A DNA stretch of 64,000 bases from an uncultured Gammaproteobacteria bacterium (lineage in GTDB: Bacteria > Patescibacteriota > Patescibacteriia > Patescibacteriales > UBA12465): the NCBI GenBank assembly GCA_964470695.1, contig CAYYDR010000001.1, positions 401,997 through 465,996 of the forward strand. Reading direction: 5' to 3'. Shown here piece after piece: positions 5,072 to 60,310 of the stretch; within the stretch, counting starts at the first letter, position 1, and every line of letters starts with the position of its first letter. The notes beneath the pieces were generated by a model, which worked only from the letters and a program-made list of their open reading frames with translations, was not told the DNA's origin and ran no database searches. The position numbers were made by a program, and so were the translations under genes.

Positions 5072-6001
5072 ATGATAGAGATTAGAGAAACAACCGACTT
5101 AAAAGAGGCGGAAAAGTTATGGCGTTCTTTATCGCCTCATAAGACTATTTTTGACGAATGGGACTGGCGTTATTGTTTTTATAAATACAATCCTCATCCT
5201 TTAAGATTTATGGCTGCCTATGAGACGGGTGGCGGTAAGGGGGCGGGTGGAGATAAAGCAGAATTGGTTGGTCTTTTGCCTTTAGCGCGCCATCCTAAAT
5301 ATGGCTTAGAGTTTTTGGCCGAAGATCCTTGTGAAGAGAACCGTTTATTTATCAAACCAGGGCGAGAGGATGTTATTCCTATTTTATACGAAGCAGTTGA
5401 TGAGCCGGCCAAATGTTATGATATAACCGGTGACGATGAGTTTACTAGAAACTTACCGTTAGAAGACTATAAATATATTCTTCCTTTGCAGGGGATAAAT
5501 TCTTTTTCAGATTTTTTAAATAGCCGTTTATCATCTAAGCGCCGCCGTTCGCTAGCTAAAGAATTAGAGGAATTAGAGAAGATTTCTCCAGAATCTTTAC
5601 TGGTAGATAAGGGGCAGTGGCCGGAGTATTTAGAATTATTGTTTCGTTTCAATACGGATAACTTCGCCGGCGAGTCTTATTTAATTGAGAATGAACAGGC
5701 CGCTTGGCGAGATTTACTCAAGCTGTCTTTTAATTGGCGCTTTATAGCCGTCAAAATAAAAAGCGAAGTTCAGGCGGTATCATTAAGTGTTTTTTATAAA
5801 GGAGAGTGGCATTATTTAATTACGGGGGTGAATTTTAAGGATTGGCCGGGGCTAGGGAAATATTTAGTTAAAGTAAATATAGAAGCGGCTATTTTGGCTC
5901 AGGCAGAAATATTTGATGCTGGCTTGGGTGACTGCGGCTGGAAGCATCTTTGGCATTTTGATAGAATTCCGCAGCATGAGTTTAGAAAATTAGTTGATTA
6001 A
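5072..6001 (+). CDS. FemAB/CelD-like GNAT acyltransferase (Acetyltransf_6-like)
   Basis: The start lies 3 nt after the ATP-grasp stop. 'SKRRRSLAKELEELEK' and the C-terminal 'FDAGLGDCGWKHLW' resemble the CelD/BioF2-like GNAT family. Confidence 0.55.
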   Translation: MIEIRETTDLKEAEKLWRSLSPHKTIFDEWDWRYCFYKYNPHPLRFMAAYETGGGKGAGGDKAELVGLLPLARHPKYGLEFLAEDPCEENRLFIKPGREDVIPILYEAVDEPAKCYDITGDDEFTRNLPLEDYKYILPLQGINSFSDFLNSRLSSKRRRSLAKELEELEKISPESLLVDKGQWPEYLELLFRFNTDNFAGESYLIENEQAAWRDLLKLSFNWRFIAVKIKSEVQAVSLSVFYKGEWHYLITGVNFKDWPGLGKYLVKVNIEAAILAQAEIFDAGLGDCGWKHLWHFDRIPQHEFRKLVD

Positions 6002-6761
6002 TAATTTTAAAACTATGTTTCTGATATCGGATGAATATTATCAAATTAAAACTACTAATAAAAAGGGCCGGGGAGTTTTTGCTAGGCGGGAAATTTCGGC
6101 CGGCACTATCATCGGCGATTATTTAGGATTGGTAATTAAAGATGAAGAAATAGACGGTAAAGAGAAAAAACATGGCAACTCTTGCTATGCTATGGATTAT
6201 AATGATAATGGTTTGTCTATTTTTCCGGCTGATGTGAAAGCGGTTGGTATCCATCTCATTAACCATTCTTGTTCGCCTAACTGTGACGCCTATTTTTATT
6301 ATGGCCATACCTTATATTTTGCTTTGCGTCGTATTTGGCCGGGTGAAGAAATAACAGTTGATTACGGATTTGATGCGGAGGGAAGTCAGGACAAAGAATT
6401 GCTTCATCCTTGTTTTTGCGGCAGTCCATTTTGTCGCGGCACTATGTATACTAATGAGGCGAGACTTAAGCTTTACGGTCGGTTCTGTCGTCAGGAAACT
6501 AAGGGTCAAAAGTTTAAAGCATTATCCGCTGGTCAGATACTGCCTCCTTTAAGTAAATATCCGAGAGTCATAAAAGATAATAATATTTTTAATTTATTCG
6601 CGAATTTAGAAAAAAAATCAGTAAGCTATAACGATAGTAGAATGCCCTCGTTATCAGAATTAAGAAAGCGTTTACGTTCTAGCGGTCGCCCCTTAAGTTT
6701 TAAGAGGTTAGGGGTAAGTATTTTAGCTATAATAGACGGCCGTTTTGTCGCTGGAAAGTAA
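5994..6761 (+). CDS. SET-domain protein-lysine methyltransferase with a post-SET Cys cluster
   Basis: 'GRGVFARREISAGTIIGDY', 'INHSCSPNC', 'GEEITVDYGF' and 'CFCGSPFCRG' are present. It overlaps the upstream gene by 8 nt, so translational coupling is likely. Confidence 0.8.
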   Translation: MINNFKTMFLISDEYYQIKTTNKKGRGVFARREISAGTIIGDYLGLVIKDEEIDGKEKKHGNSCYAMDYNDNGLSIFPADVKAVGIHLINHSCSPNCDAYFYYGHTLYFALRRIWPGEEITVDYGFDAEGSQDKELLHPCFCGSPFCRGTMYTNEARLKLYGRFCRQETKGQKFKALSAGQILPPLSKYPRVIKDNNIFNLFANLEKKSVSYNDSRMPSLSELRKRLRSSGRPLSFKRLGVSILAIIDGRFVAGK

Positions 6762-6775
6762 AAAAGGCCGGTATA

Positions 6776-6805
6776 TTGGCATGTTTTTATTAGGTGTGCT
6801 ATAAT
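6776..6805 (+). promoter_or_regulatory. Sigma-70-type promoter: TTGGCA, 18-nt spacer, TGcTATAAT
   Basis: TTGGCA at 6776-6781 and an extended -10 TGCTATAAT at 6797-6805. It sits ~165 nt upstream of the hup ATG. Confidence 0.45.
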
Positions 6806-6969
6806 ATACTTATAAACATTGAGTAATTTAAAAAGGGCTGTGTAAAAAGCCCGCCAATATTGAATAAAAGCTTATTAATTAATTTTAATTATAAAATTAT
6901 TTTTTAAAATTGGCTTTGTTATTAAAGGATTTAATTATTCTTTATTAATAATTCCCATGCAAAAAAATT

Positions 6970-7251
6970 ATGTCAAAAATGACCAAATCACAGATGATCG
7001 CTGGCTTAGCAGAAGCAACCGGCTTAAGCAAAAAAGAGACTGGCGCTTTCATGGATCAGTTAGCGGAATTAGTTTACAAAGAAGTTAAGAAGAACGGCGA
7101 ATGCATCGTTCCTGGCTTCGGTAAATTAGTAAAGGCTAAGAGAAAGGCTCGTGAAGGCCGCAATCCAGCGACTGGCGAAACCATTAAGATACCGGCTAAG
7201 ACAGTTGTAAAATTCCGCTTAGCTAAGGCTGTTAAGGACACTGTTCTATAG
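6970..7251 (+). CDS. hup: DNA-binding protein HU
   Basis: 93 aa. 'GFGKLVKAKRKAREGRNPATGETIKIPAKTVVKFRLAKAVKD' is the canonical HU/IHF arm. Confidence 0.9.
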   Translation: MSKMTKSQMIAGLAEATGLSKKETGAFMDQLAELVYKEVKKNGECIVPGFGKLVKAKRKAREGRNPATGETIKIPAKTVVKFRLAKAVKDTVL

Positions 7252-7336
7252 TATTAGTTTGTTAGTAGTTTGTTCCATAGGCCTCGCTTCGGCTTAGTCT
7301 ATGGTATAGATTTAGGAAACAATTTCGTTTCTCAAT

Positions 7337-7371
7337 AAAAAAAACATCCTGTCGGAATCCAGGGTGTTTTT
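7337..7371. terminator. Bidirectional intrinsic terminator between hup (+) and the HTH gene (-)
   Basis: A 9-bp stem AACATCCTG/CAGGGTGTT is flanked by an A-run and a T-run. Confidence 0.6.
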
Positions 7372-7665
7372 TTATTTCCATTCTTTGACATATTGGCCGA
7401 GGCCGAAGTCCTTAAGCTTATTATAAAGTTTAGTATTCTTATTTAGGAAGGATAGAAGGGAGCCTAGTTCTATTTGGTAGCGATTCTTGACTATTTTATA
7501 TTTAAGGTTAGGGTCGGATTTTATAGCCCGGCGTATAGTCTTCCCGGTAATTCCGCCTAAGCCAGCCGCCTCAGAAACAGAAAGCCAGATAGGGGACTTA
7601 ACCTCAATAGTGGTTTTTAAGTTAAAGTCTAGCGGTTTGATTATTTGGGTATCTTTTTCTTGCAT
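7372..7665 (-). CDS. Small helix-turn-helix DNA-binding protein (excisionase/MerR-like HTH)
   Basis: 'WLSVSEAAGLGGITGKTIRRAIKS' is an HTH. A minus-strand TATAAT (7679-7674) lies only 8 nt before the ATG, so the mRNA is near-leaderless. Confidence 0.6.
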   Translation of the reverse strand: MQEKDTQIIKPLDFNLKTTIEVKSPIWLSVSEAAGLGGITGKTIRRAIKSDPNLKYKIVKNRYQIELGSLLSFLNKNTKLYNKLKDFGLGQYVKEWK

Positions 7666-7874: not shown

Positions 7875-8202
7875 AAGTCTTAATATATTAGTCCTTTCTA
7901 TTTAAAAGTCAAGGATTTATAAAATATTTATTAGGGTTCGTTTAGAAGAAAAATAGATCTGAATTAATAAGAAATAGGGGCCGGGTTTAAAGATAAATAA
8001 GGCAAGAAATAATGCTGGTTGGCGTACTATATTATGTTGCTTTTCAATATTTATTGTGTTAATATATTTATAATAATTGAAAGATAATTTTGGGGTGGCG
8101 GGCCGATGATTTCCCGTTATTTTTTGTTAAGATGAGTTAACGCTTTTTTAGTGTATAGAAATTGGTTGTTTAGCAAATTAATGTAATTGATTATTCAAGA
8201 AA

Positions 8203-8793
8203 ATGCCTAGTTTAGTCCAAAAATTTAAAGATAAGCAAGCTCTTAGCCGCCTTAAAAGCCGCGATAAAGAGGCTTTTATTGCTGTTTATGATGCCCATGT
8301 TAAGGATATTCATCGTTTTGTTTATTTTAAAATAGGGAACAAGGAGGAGGCTAATGATCTAACCTCAATGATATTTTTAAAGGCCTGGAATCATATTCAA
8401 AATAAGACTTTAGAGGATGCTAAAACTTTGCGCGCTTTACTTTATAAAATTGCCAGAACATCCATTATTGACTATTATCGCGAGACCGGAAATAAGTTAG
8501 TTGCGTCTTTAGATGATGAGGAGAATAAGATAGAGGTTGTGGATAACACTATTAATCCCCAGGAGCGCTTAGATCAGGAGTCCGATTTAGATCTGATTAA
8601 GAGTAAGCTGCCACTATTAAAAGAAGAGTATAGGGAAGTTATAGTGATGAAGTTTATCAATGATTTGACCCTTGAAGAAATAGCTGAAATTAGCGGAAAA
8701 ACCAAGGGAAATGTCAGAGTTTTGTTGCATCGCGCCCTGAACGCTTTAAGAGAGCTAGTGGAAAAAGGTGAAGGAAAGAATCAGGAACTGTAA
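8203..8793 (+). CDS. ECF-type sigma-70 family RNA polymerase sigma factor
   Basis: Region 2 ('FIAVYDAHVKDIHRFVYFKIG..EEANDLTSMIFLKAW') and region 4 ('REVIVMKFINDLTLEEIAEISGKTKGNVRVLLHRALNALR'). Confidence 0.8.
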   Translation: MPSLVQKFKDKQALSRLKSRDKEAFIAVYDAHVKDIHRFVYFKIGNKEEANDLTSMIFLKAWNHIQNKTLEDAKTLRALLYKIARTSIIDYYRETGNKLVASLDDEENKIEVVDNTINPQERLDQESDLDLIKSKLPLLKEEYREVIVMKFINDLTLEEIAEISGKTKGNVRVLLHRALNALRELVEKGEGKNQEL

Positions 8794-8825
8794 CAATTTA
8801 GCGGATACTACGTATATTAAGGTGT

Positions 8826-9674
8826 ATGAACAATAAGGACCTTATCGGAAAATTAAATAATTTGAAAAAGATAAGCCCCGATCAAAATTGGCTTGATAGC
8901 AATCGGGAGCTTTTGTTATCCCAAATTTCTAATTCCGGAGCTGAGAATCTATCGGTTTGGAGAGCGAGCTTTATTAACTTTACTAGCGCCATGAAATCCT
9001 TATCTCAGCCGGCTTTCGCGCTGGGAGTTTTTGTTGTAATGCTGTTTTCCGGGGCCTTGTTTAGCCAGGGGCTACTCGCTTCTAGCAAGCCGAATACTTC
9101 TTTATATATTGCCCGCATCATTTCCGAGAAAGTTAAATTAAATACGACTTTTAATACCGAAGAGAGAAATAAACTAGCCGTTCAATATGCCTCTGAACAC
9201 GCCCAGGATATTAGCACTGTTTTAGCTGATCCGGCTTTTAATACTGAAGCTAACCGTGATCAGGTGGCCGCTTTAACAGATAGTTTTGAAAAAGAAGTTG
9301 ATACTGTTAAGACTCATATTAGCCGCATGCCCGTCGTCGTCAGAAAACCGGCCGTAAGCGATATTAATAATAACGATGTTGTTATCGCTGATAGTTCTAA
9401 AGATGGCCAGGGAATCCAGTTGGCCGAAAAAACCAATGTTAATATTCAGACTACTTTAGAAAATAAGGACTTCTTAGCTACTGGCGCCGCCTTAAATGAT
9501 AATGCGTCTTTAACAGCAACCTCTGCCGCTAGCTCAACTCCGAAATTAAATATTCCTGTTAAAGAAACTTCGGATGCGGAGAAGATAGTTGATGAAGCCA
9601 TAAAGTTATTTGATTCTAAAGATTATAGTAAAGCGTCTGATAAGTTAAAAGAAGTAAAAGATATAATTAAATAA
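8826..9674 (+). CDS. Putative anti-sigma factor: single-pass membrane protein downstream of the ECF sigma gene
   Basis: The call rests on position, one TM helix (AFALGVFVVMLFSGALF) and a low-complexity extracytoplasmic tail. No diagnostic motif was found. Confidence 0.4.
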   Translation: MNNKDLIGKLNNLKKISPDQNWLDSNRELLLSQISNSGAENLSVWRASFINFTSAMKSLSQPAFALGVFVVMLFSGALFSQGLLASSKPNTSLYIARIISEKVKLNTTFNTEERNKLAVQYASEHAQDISTVLADPAFNTEANRDQVAALTDSFEKEVDTVKTHISRMPVVVRKPAVSDINNNDVVIADSSKDGQGIQLAEKTNVNIQTTLENKDFLATGAALNDNASLTATSAASSTPKLNIPVKETSDAEKIVDEAIKLFDSKDYSKASDKLKEVKDIIK

Positions 9675-20197: not shown

Positions 20198-20606
20198 GTT
20201 ATTAGGGTAAGCGGGCGATCGCTTTATTTTTTATTCTTAGCCTCGGTTAAGCTTAAAAATGAAGAGGAAAGTCCGGACTTCGCAATTCGCCCGGGGAAAC
20301 CTGGGTGACACGATAGTGGGTAACGCCCACCGGCTCGTTTTTCGGGTCAGGGAAAGTGCCACAGAGACAATACTAATCCTGGAATATTTAACAGGATAAA
20401 AGGTGAAAAGTAACTGGATGTCCTTCGGGGCTACCGGTTTCGGCCTCCGGCGACGGAGAGCCCGTGGTAAACCCTATCGGAAGCAAGAGCAAACTGGCGT
20501 CCTTCAAAAGGCGCCAAGACAAGTGGCTCGCTTGAGCCTATTAGTAATAATAGGCCTAGATAAATGATCGCTAGAACAGAATCCGGCTTACGGCTGCCCT
20601 AATAAC
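20198..20606 (+). ncRNA. rnpB: RNase P RNA, bacterial type A
   Basis: Conserved blocks GAGGAAAGTCCGG, GGGTAACGCCC, AGGGAAAGTGCCACAGAGA, GGTAAACCC and ACAGAATCCGGCTTA. P1 pairs GTTATTAGGG (20198-) with CCCTAATAAC (-20606), and P2 pairs GCGATCGC with GATCGCT. Confidence 0.93.
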
Positions 20607-27457: not shown

Positions 27458-27467
27458 ATGTATAGTG

Positions 27468-27551
27468 TGCCCGAGGTGGGATTCGAACCCACACGGCCGT
27501 TAAGCCGCACGATTTTGAGTCGTGTTCGTCTACCAGTTTCGACACTCGGGC
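27468..27551 (-). tRNA. tRNA-Leu(CAA), type II with a long variable arm
   Basis: The reverse complement GCCCGAG..CACGA-CTCAAAA-TCGTG..CGGCTTAACGGCCGT..GTGGG-TTCGAAT-CCCAC-CTCGGGC-A folds as a cloverleaf. CCA is not encoded. Confidence 0.92.
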
Positions 27552-49381: not shown

Positions 49382-49452
49382 TCGGGGATCGTCTAACGGT
49401 AGGACAGCAGGTTCTGGTCCTGCTTATTGGGGTTCGAATCCCTATCCCCGAG
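49382..49452 (+). tRNA. tRNA-Gln(CUG)
   Basis: Cloverleaf TCGGGGA-TC-GTCT..GGAC-A-GCAGG-TTCTGGT-CCTGC-TTAT-TGGGG-TTCGAAT-CCCTA-TCCCCGA-G. It has the U1-A72 pair typical of tRNA-Gln. Confidence 0.9.
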
Positions 49453-49454
49453 CA

Positions 49455-49495
49455 CTAAAATAAAACAACAGCTGTTAGCTGTTGTTTTATTTTAG
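49455..49495. terminator. 18-bp perfect A/T-rich hairpin (bidirectional terminator-like) after tRNA-Gln
   Basis: CTAAAATAAAACAACAGC-tgtta-GCTGTTGTTTTATTTTAG. Confidence 0.65.
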
Positions 49496-49499
49496 CATT

Positions 49500-49670
49500 C
49501 TAGGAGTTGGGGATTCGAACAGGTCAGGAGCGAAACAAGCTTGAGCCGCTATTTTGAGCGGCGAAAGCGCAGTTGAGTGTCGCTAAAGCTCTGGGGGAGC
49601 TTTAGCGCTGACCCAGGACAAGTGAGCGACGCGGAAGCGGAGCGAGCGCGATAATCCCTATCCCCGAGCA
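49500..49670. ncRNA. Unit 1 of an unclassified GC-rich structured element flanked by tRNA-Gln T-arm/3'-end fragments
   Basis: 5' box TAGGAGTTGGGGATTCGAACAGG (49501-49523). Hairpins at 49545-49562 and 49581-49607. The 3' box AATCCCTATCCCCGAGCA (49653-49670) is identical to tRNA positions 49437-49454. Strand is unknown. Confidence 0.5.
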
Positions 49671-49709
49671 AAATAAAAATACTAGCATAAAATGCTAGTA
49701 TTTTTATTT
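49671..49709. terminator. 18-bp perfect A/T-rich hairpin between unit 1 and unit 2
   Basis: AAATAAAAATACTAGCAT-aaa-ATGCTAGTATTTTTATTT. Confidence 0.6.
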
Positions 49710-49713
49710 CATC

Positions 49714-49878
49714 TTAGGAGTTTGGGATTCGAACAGGTTGGAAGCGAGCTAGTCGGCGTTCAGCGGAACGACGACGCAGCGAGCGATCGTTAAGCATCCG
49801 GGGGATGCTTAACGCAACCCGCGACAACGAAGGCGCGAACTGGTGAGCGCCTGAGGCGGAAATTCCTATCCTCGAGCC
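49714..49878. ncRNA. Unit 2 of the same element (a diverged copy)
   Basis: 5' box TTAGGAGTTTGGGATTCGAACAGG (49714-49737). Hairpins at 49753-49774, 49788-49814 and 49831-49852. The 3' box AATTCCTATCCTCGAGCC matches the tRNA end at 15 of 18 positions. Confidence 0.45.
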
Positions 49879-50342
49879 AACGTAGATTAAGCGAGGTTAA
49901 AGCATCACTTTTTCTATAATCATCGTCAAGTTTTGGCGGTTCTAACCCGGCTAATTCGGCGTTAAATTTTCCAACATTATTTCTTATTGGTAAAATTCAG
50001 TTATAATAAGAAATGTTAAGCTTTTTATCAATTATCATTCGGTTCGAACCTAAAAAATATATAGATTCTTTATCCGCAATAGCAAAACGACCTTTGGTAA
50101 AGTTTGGTCAAAGATTTAGTCAAAGGTTTTAGCGGTATTTTGGCTAATATTAATTATTAAGATTTTGTTAAAATATAAACAATAATACTTTCCCGATATT
50201 TAATCGGTTGATATTATATTTAGTATTATTTTTAACTATAATTTTTATTTAAAATTAAATAAAATTATATTATTTTATTACAAAAGTAATTTAAATAAGC
50301 TTATATTTATTATATTTTTATTGTTATCGGTATTTTAATTAT

Positions 50343-50371
50343 TTGACAGCGGTTCCGCTATTTGATAAAAT
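50343..50371 (+). promoter_or_regulatory. Promoter of the mini-HTH operon: TTGACA, 17-nt spacer, TAAAAT
   Basis: TTGACA at 50343-50348 and TAAAAT at 50366-50371, 32 nt before the ATG at 50403. The spacer contains GCGGTTCCGC. Confidence 0.55.
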
Positions 50372-55289: not shown

Positions 55290-55345
55290 ATTGGCTTATT
55301 TATTCATTTAATTGTCTAATGAATAATTTAGCACTTCCTCCACGA

Positions 55346-55358
55346 CCCCGAGCAAAAT
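55346..55358 (+). repeat. Right-hand copy of the tRNA-Gln 3'-end repeat (candidate attR)
   Basis: CCCCGAGCAAAAT is identical to 49662-49674 and close to the tRNA end plus flank at 49446-49461. Confidence 0.5.
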
Positions 55359-55396
55359 TTACAAAATAGCACTAAATGTGCTATTTTTGGTATATA
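55358..55396 (+). promoter_or_regulatory. Palindromic promoter/operator module, copy 1
   Basis: TTTACA, 18-nt spacer, TGcTATTTT. Contains AAAATAGCAC-taaat-GTGCTATTTT (55363-55387). A 29-nt block is identical to copy 3. Confidence 0.6.
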
Positions 55397-57271: not shown

Positions 57272-57318
57272 AATACTTAGCTCAAAATTATTCCAATTGC
57301 GTCTTATCTAACAATAAA

Positions 57319-57360
57319 TAGACAAAATACCACTTTTTGTGCTATTTTTGTTGTATATAA
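57319..57360 (+). promoter_or_regulatory. Palindromic promoter/operator module, copy 2
   Basis: TAGACA, 18-nt spacer, TGcTATTTT. Contains AAAATACCAC-ttttt-GTGCTATTTT (57324-57348). It is out of frame with the downstream ORF. Confidence 0.6.
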
Positions 57361-60183: not shown

Positions 60184-60269
60184 GTGACATGGCGGTCTAT
60201 GGTTTTTCTATAAGAAATAGAAATATTTAGGATAAATTCGTCCCAACTATATCTAAACCTTGGAGTAAA

Positions 60270-60310
60270 TAGACAAAATAGCACTAAATGTGCTATTTTT
60301 GTTGTATAAA
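60270..60310 (+). promoter_or_regulatory. Palindromic promoter/operator module, copy 3
   Basis: TAGACA, 18-nt spacer, TGcTATTTT. Contains AAAATAGCAC-taaat-GTGCTATTTT (60275-60299). The ATG at 60314 follows closely. Confidence 0.6.

Follow-up and report, generated by a model that had tools for sequence, protein, structure and literature searches.

What kind of element can repeat the 3′ end of a tRNA gene directly behind that gene, carry no gene for a protein and still keep its shape? This question is raised by a 64-kb stretch of a Falkowbacteria genome of the candidate phyla radiation (assembly GCA_964470695.1, contig CAYYDR010000001.1, positions 401,997 to 465,996; the whole stretch is called the window here), in which two tandem units of ~210 bp (~215 bp) lie directly 3′ of the gene for tRNA-Gln(CUG). 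[quoted passage not shown] In this study, we show that the units have a covarying structure on the plus strand, that both are insertions which separate the tRNA from its old flank, and that related units exist at other loci. The first two of these readings fit the data, and the best overall explanation, which we hold with slightly better than even confidence, is a protein-free cassette behind tRNA-Gln with one structured RNA of ~165-170 nt on the tRNA strand.

Architecture of the tRNA-Gln locus

The tRNA-Gln(CUG) gene is found at 49382-49453 on the plus strand (ARAGORN; Rfam tRNA, 55.3 bits). Behind it, each unit consists, in this order, of an AT-rich hairpin, a 5′ box, a G+C-rich body of 130-140 nt and a copy of the tRNA 3′ end. 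The 3′ box AATCCCTATCCCCGAGCA was located by pattern search exactly at 49437-49454 and 49653-49670 and with three mismatches (15/18) at 49861-49878, the first copy being the last 18 nt of tRNA-Gln itself, including 1-2 nt beyond the discriminator; there is no further copy in the 64 kb, where 0.06 matches would be expected by chance. The 23-nt 5′ box is exact at 49501-49523 and has one mismatch at 49715-49737 (chance expectation, 0). The coordinates given in the preliminary description for the tandem units and their boxes were thus right and lie far beyond chance, and the same is true of its remarks on composition and coding, since the bodies have 55-62% G+C against 9-43% in the flanks (the lowest flank values being 9-14%) and the longest open reading frame (ORF) within the units, on the minus strand, has 40 aa, in agreement with the stated lack of any ORF of 60 aa or more. 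Unit 1 and unit 2 can be aligned end to end, with bodies that are ~60% identical and boxes that are almost identical. The 5′ box and the 3′ box are complementary to each other, with two registers possible, so that the former is more than a look-alike of the 5′ half of a T-arm. Together, the 3′ box, the hairpin and the 5′ box form an imperfect palindrome of ~89 bp.

Distribution of the units

A scan for the exact pattern of the 5′ box returned one species-representative genome (L001, a Patescibacteria metagenome-assembled genome, MAG) and the metagenome loci L003, L004 and L005, the last of which is identical in sequence to L001. The lysyl-tRNA synthetase (LysRS) encoded nearby is 77-90% identical to the best 120 matches listed, few of which have a source name, these being Candidatus Falkowbacteria or Patescibacteria; walking outward from LysRS homologues as anchors gave 20 further loci, and two of them, L018 and L028, hold new units. 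Two other matches (L002 and L025) were due to chance, and nothing genuine was found in viral contigs (three patterns), phage records or plasmid records. There are therefore seven distinct units, which fall into two subtypes: type A, comprising unit 1 of the window and L001 (= L005), and type B, comprising unit 2 and the units of L003, L004, L018 and L028. Two copies are present in the window and one at each other locus. The unit lies directly 3′ of tRNA-Gln and on its strand in the window, L003, L018 and L028, while the units of L001 and L004 sit behind a degenerate pseudo-3′ end instead. Identity of the 3′ box to the tRNA is 18/18 for unit 1, 15/18 for unit 2, 16/18 for L018 and 17/17 for L003, where it includes the CCCTG variant of that genome; the box of L028 is remodelled. 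At L008, a hairpin and a 49-nt remnant (AAGGGATGAGAAGTTTATACCCGAAGCGAAGCGAAGGGTG) lie between two exact tRNA 3′ boxes (7025-7127).

The hairpins that precede the units are perfect, as had been described, and form palindromes with 3-nt loops. Hairpin 1 (49455-49495) has 19-bp arms and an A-tract and a T-tract at its base, and in style it resembles a bidirectional terminator; hairpin 2 (49671-49709) has 18-bp arms. They are not the pure A/T stems that had been reported; they are A/T-rich, at the base above all, and the upper stems read CAACAGCT and ACTAGCA. Hairpins of the same style, with A-tract, stem and T-tract, also occur 3′ of other genes in the window, and homologous ones stand upstream of the units in L004, L001 and L028. 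The gap between hairpin and 5′ box (5-11 nt) and a CAT(T)CT spacer are kept in six of the seven units, L028 being the one that deviates.

Covariation and strand of the fold

The units are selected for secondary structure. RNAalifold on the five type B units gave 41 pairs with 90.6% of the cells paired, and 17 of the 41 pairs show double-sided changes, a number reached by none of 500 column shuffles; when partners were slid by 1-3 columns as a control, only 0-6 double-change pairs were left. Moreover, a covariance model built from the type B units alone (model R1) and searched against the window and 16 loci detected the type A units at 77.4 bits (unit 1) and 69.3 bits (L001), with unit 2 at 163.7 bits, and found nothing more except the truncated duplicate L005 and a 16-bit match to the T-arm of the L018 tRNA. 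The unit of L001 is 86% identical to unit 1 and carries compensatory changes. The earlier argument from compensatory change, made on two copies, is thus borne out by five further ones, and homologues that a covariance model can recognize do exist elsewhere.

The common layout is a closing helix, a CGAACA junction, a helix P1 that encloses the hairpins Hb and Hd, a junction containing GACAA, and a hairpin He. P1 occurs as GGUCAG/CUGACC, GGCCAG/CUGGCC, GGUUG/CAACC and GGUCG/CGACC; Hb has symmetric tandem G-A loops with outer pairs that covary; and the stem of Hd differs wholly in sequence among the copies. In unit 1 (49501-49670, plus strand; segmented by hand with the folds as a guide), these parts are the 5′ box at 49501-49523, the closing strand UUGGGGAUU at 49507-49515, the junction CGAACA at 49516-49521, P1 at 49522-49527 with 49608-49613, the long Hb with its tandem G-A loops at 49530-49578, Hd at 49581-49607, the junction CAGGACAA at 49614-49621, He, with two tandem G-A loops and a GGAA loop, at 49622-49647, and the 3′ box at 49653-49670. 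In unit 2 (49715-49878, plus strand), they are the 5′ box at 49715-49737, P1 at 49736-49740 with 49815-49819, Hb at 49744-49784, Hd at 49788-49814, He at 49828-49855 and the degenerate 3′ box at 49861-49878. The fold of unit 1 has -70.1 kcal/mol (z = -3.8) and that of unit 2 has z = -2.5. The internal hairpins that had been placed at equivalent positions in the two copies were recovered, those at 49581-49607 and 49788-49814 as perfect hairpins and those at 49545-49562 and 49753-49774 in the minimum-energy folds.

Cells of the model helices hold 17 G-U but only 4 A-C combinations, which indicates that the folding strand is the tRNA strand, and GNRA and symmetric tandem G-A motifs are likewise found on the plus strand. 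Such features are usual in structured RNA, and a plus-strand structure, as RNA, is most likely. The same observations rule out a minus-strand gene with the hairpin as its terminator. A pseudoknot between the G-rich loop of Hd and the CCCUA of the 3′ box was also considered and was rejected, since the loop is too short and L018 does not have it.

It might be argued that the units are neutral debris, that is, partial tRNA-Gln duplications or leftovers of integration without function. The mismatches of unit 2 (three in the 3′ box, a single one in the 5′ box), the mere 49-nt remnant at L008 and the lack of units in most sister genomes would agree with this. However, the idea is strongly disfavoured by the double changes and the extent of pairing in the helices, and also by subtypes that are only ~60% identical and yet share a fold and by bodies that remain G+C-rich within an A+T-rich genome; we regard it as scarcely credible.

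Closing helix and boundary of the unit

Two registers of the closing helix are supported almost equally. In an acceptor-like register, UUGGGGAU pairs with AUCCCCGA (49/56 cells paired), and in a T-stem-like register, UGGGGAUU pairs with AAUCCCUA (52/56 cells paired). Each register has one compensatory double change, from G-C to A-U in L018 and from U-A to C-G in L028, respectively. In both cases it is the downstream 3′ box of the same unit that carries the compensating base, and not the copy in the tRNA upstream; the evolving entity is therefore the 5′ box, the body and the 3′ box. It follows that the preliminary description was mistaken in letting the unit start at the hairpin, which is a separate piece.

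The acceptor-like register suggests another explanation, in which the unit is a mimic of tRNA, an acceptor-stem RNA that is tmRNA-like or acts as a decoy for RNase P, the CCA-adding enzyme, a synthetase, GatCAB or a tRNA-targeting toxin. The 8-bp stem UUGGGGAU/AUCCCCGA with a discriminator G resembles that of tRNA-Gln, it is the choice of RNAalifold on five units, the change in L018 compensates within it, and the 5′ box looks like the 5′ ends of tmRNAs. Against this, the units have neither T-arm nor D-arm, ARAGORN recognizes no tmRNA or extra tRNA, Rfam gives no tmRNA or tRNA match on the units, and L028 is without the acceptor pairing even though it keeps the body and the T-like register. We consider such mimicry very improbable.

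Insertion between the tRNA gene and its old flank

The comparison with L027 shows an empty site. In that locus tRNA-Gln ends in ...CCCCGAGC and is followed at once by CAACGTAGATTAAGCGAGGTTAAAGC, whereas in the window CAACGTAGATTAAGCGAGGTTAAAGC comes after unit 2, where it begins an ancestral tRNA-Gln flank with a decayed native terminator (49879-49960, plus strand). Both units were thus inserted between the tRNA and this old flank. It also follows that the degenerate third box, which has kept GAGCC, is the displaced original end of the tRNA, and that the present tRNA end, GAGCA, was brought by the insert. The inserted DNA is bracketed by direct repeats of the target, and the unit is inserted exactly after TTCGA without target duplication. 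No unit is present at the sites in L009, L011, L013-15, L017 and L019-21, so that occupied and empty sites, which the preliminary description had proposed to look for in sister genomes, are both found among the relatives.

The precise point of insertion brings to mind a guide RNA, whose boxes would address both strands of the T-arm and 3′ end of tRNA-Gln and bring a recombinase or nuclease there, as IS110 bridge RNAs and TnpB omega RNAs do. Indeed, GTTCGAATCCC of the tRNA gene is complementary to the 5′ box, and AATCCC...GAGCA is identical to the 3′ box, so that the boxes match opposite strands of the insertion site itself, and a scaffold of ~140 nt with a terminal segment of 17-18 nt equal to the target is the layout one would look for. 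Nevertheless, the flanks of the seven units contain none of the genes cognate to IS110 bridge RNAs or TnpB/IscB omega RNAs and no Cas gene, no guide-RNA family of Rfam matches, the two boxes form a helix with each other in which they co-evolve, and the 3′ boxes of L018 and L028 no longer match their own tRNA. A guide function therefore seems quite improbable.

Surroundings of the units

From the sequences compared, the tRNA-Gln locus is an integration and recombination hotspot. What lies 3′ of tRNA-Gln varies among all relatives compared. In L019, the gene abuts a large serine recombinase (Resolvase, Recombinase and Zn-ribbon domains by Pfam) encoded at 5962-7500 on the minus strand, whose C-terminal ~20 codons are tRNA-Gln in antisense (...MLGDRDSNPNSQDQNLESYR), and beside it lies a replication gene of the RepSA/G2P type (7975-8919). 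In L020/L021, an ORF at the same position has 25-36% tblastn identity to the C-terminal part of the L019 recombinase. These look like integrative elements that use tRNA-Gln as their attachment site. In L008 and L011, sequences that adjoin the tRNA in other genomes are found 1.1-3.5 kb downstream, each behind the pseudo-3′ end GTTCCAACTATATCCCAAACTCCGAGCA.

Such pseudo-ends belong to a recurrent border module made of a pseudo tRNA 3′ end of the GTTCCAACTATATCCCAAACTCCGAGCA type, AATAG, a hairpin ACAAAATAGCAC..GTGCTATTTTTGTT and TATAAA. On the plus strand of the window there is one at 55334-55389, with the pseudo-end CTTCCTCCACGACCCCGAGCA and the hairpin ACAAAATAGCAC..GTGCTATTTTTG, which is evidence of serial insertion behind tRNA-Gln, and another at 60240-60301, where GTCCCAACTATATCTAAACCTTGGAGTA with AATAG and a hairpin carries the recurrent variant GTTCCAACTATATCCCAAACTCCGAGCA. 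At 57317-57350 (in the region of about 57300-57350, plus strand), only the border-type hairpin is seen, as AATAG and ACAAAATACCAC..GTGCTATTTTTG, and no pseudo-end can be recognized before it in TTGCGTCTTATCTAACAAT. The full module also occurs in L011, L013 and L008, and the hairpin is present in L003, L004 and L018, some copies standing behind a degenerate remnant in other loci.

It is in this setting that an element acting as DNA has to be considered, such as an attP-like region or a rolling-circle single-strand origin whose folding would be selected in single-stranded DNA. The large serine recombinases and the Rep gene at the hotspot agree with it, as do the recurrence of pseudo-3′-end and hairpin modules as cassette borders and the ~89-bp palindrome; moreover, motifs of the type GCGAAAGC/GCGAAGC form very stable mini-hairpins in DNA. 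On the other hand, model R1 finds no unit body in the serine-recombinase loci L019, L020 and L021, and no recombinase or Rep gene adjoins any of the seven units. The conserved gap and CAT(T)CT spacer speak against independent deletion remnants, the 5′ box compensates with its own 3′ box across the body, and the counterpart in Escherichia coli yields a stable RNA (rttR; PMC8144298). We therefore think a DNA-level element possible but unlikely. The third of the earlier readings, stacked att remnants, was right about the neighbourhood, which is that of an integration hotspot, but not about the bodies, which without any match of R1 in the recombinase loci are not decaying arms of recombinase-bearing elements.

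Several further features of the neighbourhood deserve mention. Between 49879 and 60301, gene groups divided by border modules appear to form an array of ~10 kb, which contains four small helix-turn-helix (HTH) paralogues, an N6/N4 methylase with a weakly PD-(D/E)XK-like ORF, a DndB-like protein and further ORF groups; it looks like an integron-like or tandem-accretion pattern. An extremely A+T-rich segment (50150-50350; 9-14% G+C) separates the old tRNA flank from the first of the small HTH genes. The units stand at the head of this array, which repeated insertion behind tRNA-Gln has built up. Pfam recognizes no integrase, transposase or guide-RNA nuclease in the island of the window or beside the units of L001, L003, L018 and L028. 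Among the genes found there are a restriction-modification pair and genes for DndB-like and small HTH proteins, a weak Phd/YefM-like antitoxin and methyltransferases. One gene pair (71 aa and 81 aa) occurs downstream of the units both at L001 1805-2270 and at L003 7224-7689, in contexts that are otherwise different; the match of the 71-aa product to the Phd/YefM antitoxin is weak (E 5e-4; 20 bits against a Pfam cutoff of 29.8 bits).

A non-coding stretch of ~200 nt at L001 326-520 (= L005), flanked by a cupin gene and by the hairpin ahead of the unit, ends in the pseudo-3′ end GTTCGGAAGCCGTCCCTCCAAGCGAGC and starts with GCTCCAAGC, in which part of that pseudo-end is directly repeated. Neither Rfam nor ARAGORN gives a match on the stretch, which may be another, unrelated cassette of the same design. 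In L006, L007, L010, L012 and L026, contigs of close relatives end within or just after tRNA-Gln; such breaks would be expected if repeats or strain variation disrupt assembly there. Elsewhere in the window, a class A RNase P RNA is encoded at 20203-20605 on the plus strand (182 bits), and tRNA-Leu(CAA), at 27467-27551 on the minus strand, has neither a unit nor a 3′-end repeat adjoining it.

Proposed mechanism

It is not only the fold but also the way in which the units may be expressed and moved that the protein-free cassette would account for. We infer a route of transcription, processing and recombination, and any cellular role of the units is putative as well. In the folded RNA, the 5′ box would pair with the 3′ box of its own unit, which repeats the tRNA from A58 of the T-loop onward to the 3′ end, and this closing helix would enclose a body of three parts, in which P1 surrounds a long G-A-rich hairpin and a variable hairpin and is followed by a second G-A-rich hairpin. 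The unit would be transcribed from the tRNA promoter by read-through of the A/T hairpin, and it would be released or trimmed by the enzymes that process tRNA ends; trimming of the tRNA type is suggested because the end of the unit mimics that of a tRNA. Copies could be gained, lost and stacked by recombination in the shared box of 17-18 nt, either by homologous recombination or catalysed by serine recombinases that use the tRNA-Gln site. We further conjecture that a circular unit would consist of the RNA gene and its own terminator. Recombination in the 3′ box would then give the box and terminator of the unit to the tRNA and the old tRNA end to the unit, an exchange that would leave both genes intact and that fits the GAGCA/GAGCC pattern.

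A number of observations weigh against this explanation. In a simple consensus scan, neither the tRNA nor the units showed a promoter, and transcription might stop at the long perfect hairpins without reaching the units. The register of the closing helix is ambiguous between acceptor-like and T-like. Two pairs at the base of Hb are disrupted in L001, and the ends of the L028 unit are remodelled. The pair counts come from seven copies only, all of them from related MAGs, and do not represent independent events. Mini-hairpins of the GCGAAGC type and tandem G-A pairs are stable in single-stranded DNA as well, and the conserved form might also, though less probably, be folded single-stranded DNA. 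Finally, the scores obtained with Rfam model RF00391 and with R1, which are given below, leave common descent with the E. coli RtT repeats unproven.

Comparison with known systems

The preliminary description had found no RNA family to which the units could be assigned. Rfam, at gathering and at permissive thresholds, likewise returned no family but tRNA on the units, apart from matches to plant miRNA precursors, which merely reflect the palindrome of 3′ box, hairpin and 5′ box. A resemblance to tmRNA had already been set aside, rightly so, since ARAGORN is negative for tmRNA, including permuted forms, and for extra tRNAs in the window and the loci, and Rfam is negative too; the tmRNA-like look of the 5′ box led nowhere. 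With tmRNA and other tRNA-like RNAs, the units share a possible acceptor-like closing helix and discriminator around a large structured insert, but they have no T-arm and no tag reading frame, and L028 has lost the acceptor register. The introns of Patescibacterial tRNAs are group I introns at position 35/36 in the anticodon loop (PMC13011429). The units have no D arm, no anticodon arm and no intron match, and an intron-containing or split tRNA or a group I intron can be dismissed.

Integron cassettes with their attC sites are alike in being small cassettes arrayed in one orientation with imperfect palindromic separators, and also in that the structure of the palindrome is kept rather than its sequence. 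However, no tyrosine recombinase of the IntI type was seen, the site recombinases being serine recombinases, and the R′/R″ core (GTTRRRY) of attC is absent by inspection. There are parallels, too, with the tandem accretion of integrative elements at tRNA genes and with cis-mobilizable elements, which lack an integrase and are flanked by att sites. Here as well there are direct repeats of a tRNA 3′ end, the gene-proximal tRNA end is element-derived there as in the units (GAGCA instead of the ancestral GAGCC), older flanks are displaced downstream, and recombinase-bearing elements are found at the same tRNA in sister genomes. The units differ from accreted elements in their size of ~215 bp, in having no protein gene and in a cargo that is a covarying structured element; moreover, the right arm of the unit is an exact copy of the tRNA, in contrast to the recurrent pseudo-3′-end variant of the larger cassettes.

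The closest likeness is to the tRNA-linked repeats (TLRs) of E. coli, an architecture that the preliminary description overlooked. To our knowledge, TLRs are known only from enterobacteria. The class goes back to Egan and Landy in 1978 and Rudd in 1999 (as cited in PMC8144298), and 22 TLRs are present in E. coli at 10 loci, with 1-5 per locus, the last 18-19 nt of each being identical to the 3′ end of the upstream tRNA or rRNA (PMC8144298). RtT, or rttR, of the tyrT operon (Rfam RF00391) is a stable RNA (PMC8144298; rttR is annotated in E. coli K-12). The copies rrA, rrB and rrF, which follow 5S rRNA, have a terminator on either side and arise by read-through, and the repeat has been proposed to direct 3′ processing (PMC8144298).

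Compared with the tyrV-rttR locus of E. coli K-12 and the Rfam consensus of RtT, the units are identical in architecture. Both lie directly 3′ of a stable-RNA gene, on the same strand and in tandem copies. The RtT repeat AATCCTTCCCCCACCACCA begins at T-loop A58 (AATCC...), exactly where AATCCCTATCCCCGAGCA begins in the units, and the left partial copy of the tRNA ends in ...AAGGTTCGA in RtT and in TTGGGGATTCGA (the TTCGA end) in the units, so that the T-arm interrupted within its T-loop, accurately seen in the preliminary description, has an exact precedent. The 5′ box of RtT, GGGGAAGGAT, pairs with the repeat and closes a G+C-rich body (~75 nt, with GAA and GCA loops), just as the units have a 5′ box that pairs with the repeat. 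L018 and the L008 remnant carry GGATGAGAA at the same place as RtT, and, like rrA, rrB and rrF, the units of L004 and L018 and also the L008 remnant are enclosed by two terminators. With its 5′ motif GGATGAGAAG and its GAAGCG repeats, the L008 remnant is closer to E. coli RtT than the full units are.

The differences are equally clear. RF00391 (gathering score 45 bits), with E values of up to 10 allowed, matched neither the window units nor L018 nor L008, whereas it scored the E. coli repeats at 133-137 bits in the same search; conversely, the three E. coli repeats come out on top with model R1, but score only 4.7-6.1 bits. The body of the units is longer (130-140 nt against ~75 nt) with another layout of helices, an A/T-rich perfect hairpin stands ahead of every unit, the tRNA gene has no encoded CCA and its repeat ends in GAGCA, and the host is a reduced-genome Patescibacterium and not an enterobacterium. 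We therefore regard the units, which are built like TLRs and would work like them, as a probable Patescibacterial counterpart of the TLR design that is structurally distinct from it, not as demonstrable members of the RtT family. It is an improbable extension that RtT-type TLRs and the Patescibacterial units belong to one widespread class of protein-free mobile RNA cassettes, whose end boxes mimic and pair with the T-loop-to-3′-end segment of a given tRNA gene, which would insert themselves by that match, RNA-guided or with the help of a recombinase, and which would ride on tRNA transcription and processing.

The units are thus a genuine find and more than a curiosity, though not one of an entirely new category. 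They give the TLR design, unexplained for 45 years, a second and distant example, and they suggest that TLRs offer small RNAs a general means of attachment to tRNA genes and are no enterobacterial oddity. Few noncoding RNAs have been described for the candidate phyla radiation, and the units add a candidate new structured RNA family. Insertion polymorphism and covariation are both seen in the units; what this locus adds to the TLRs of E. coli, for which we came upon nothing of the kind, is covariation for a larger fold, occupied and empty sites, and a surrounding recombination hotspot, and with these a comparative handle on the origin and mobility of TLRs.

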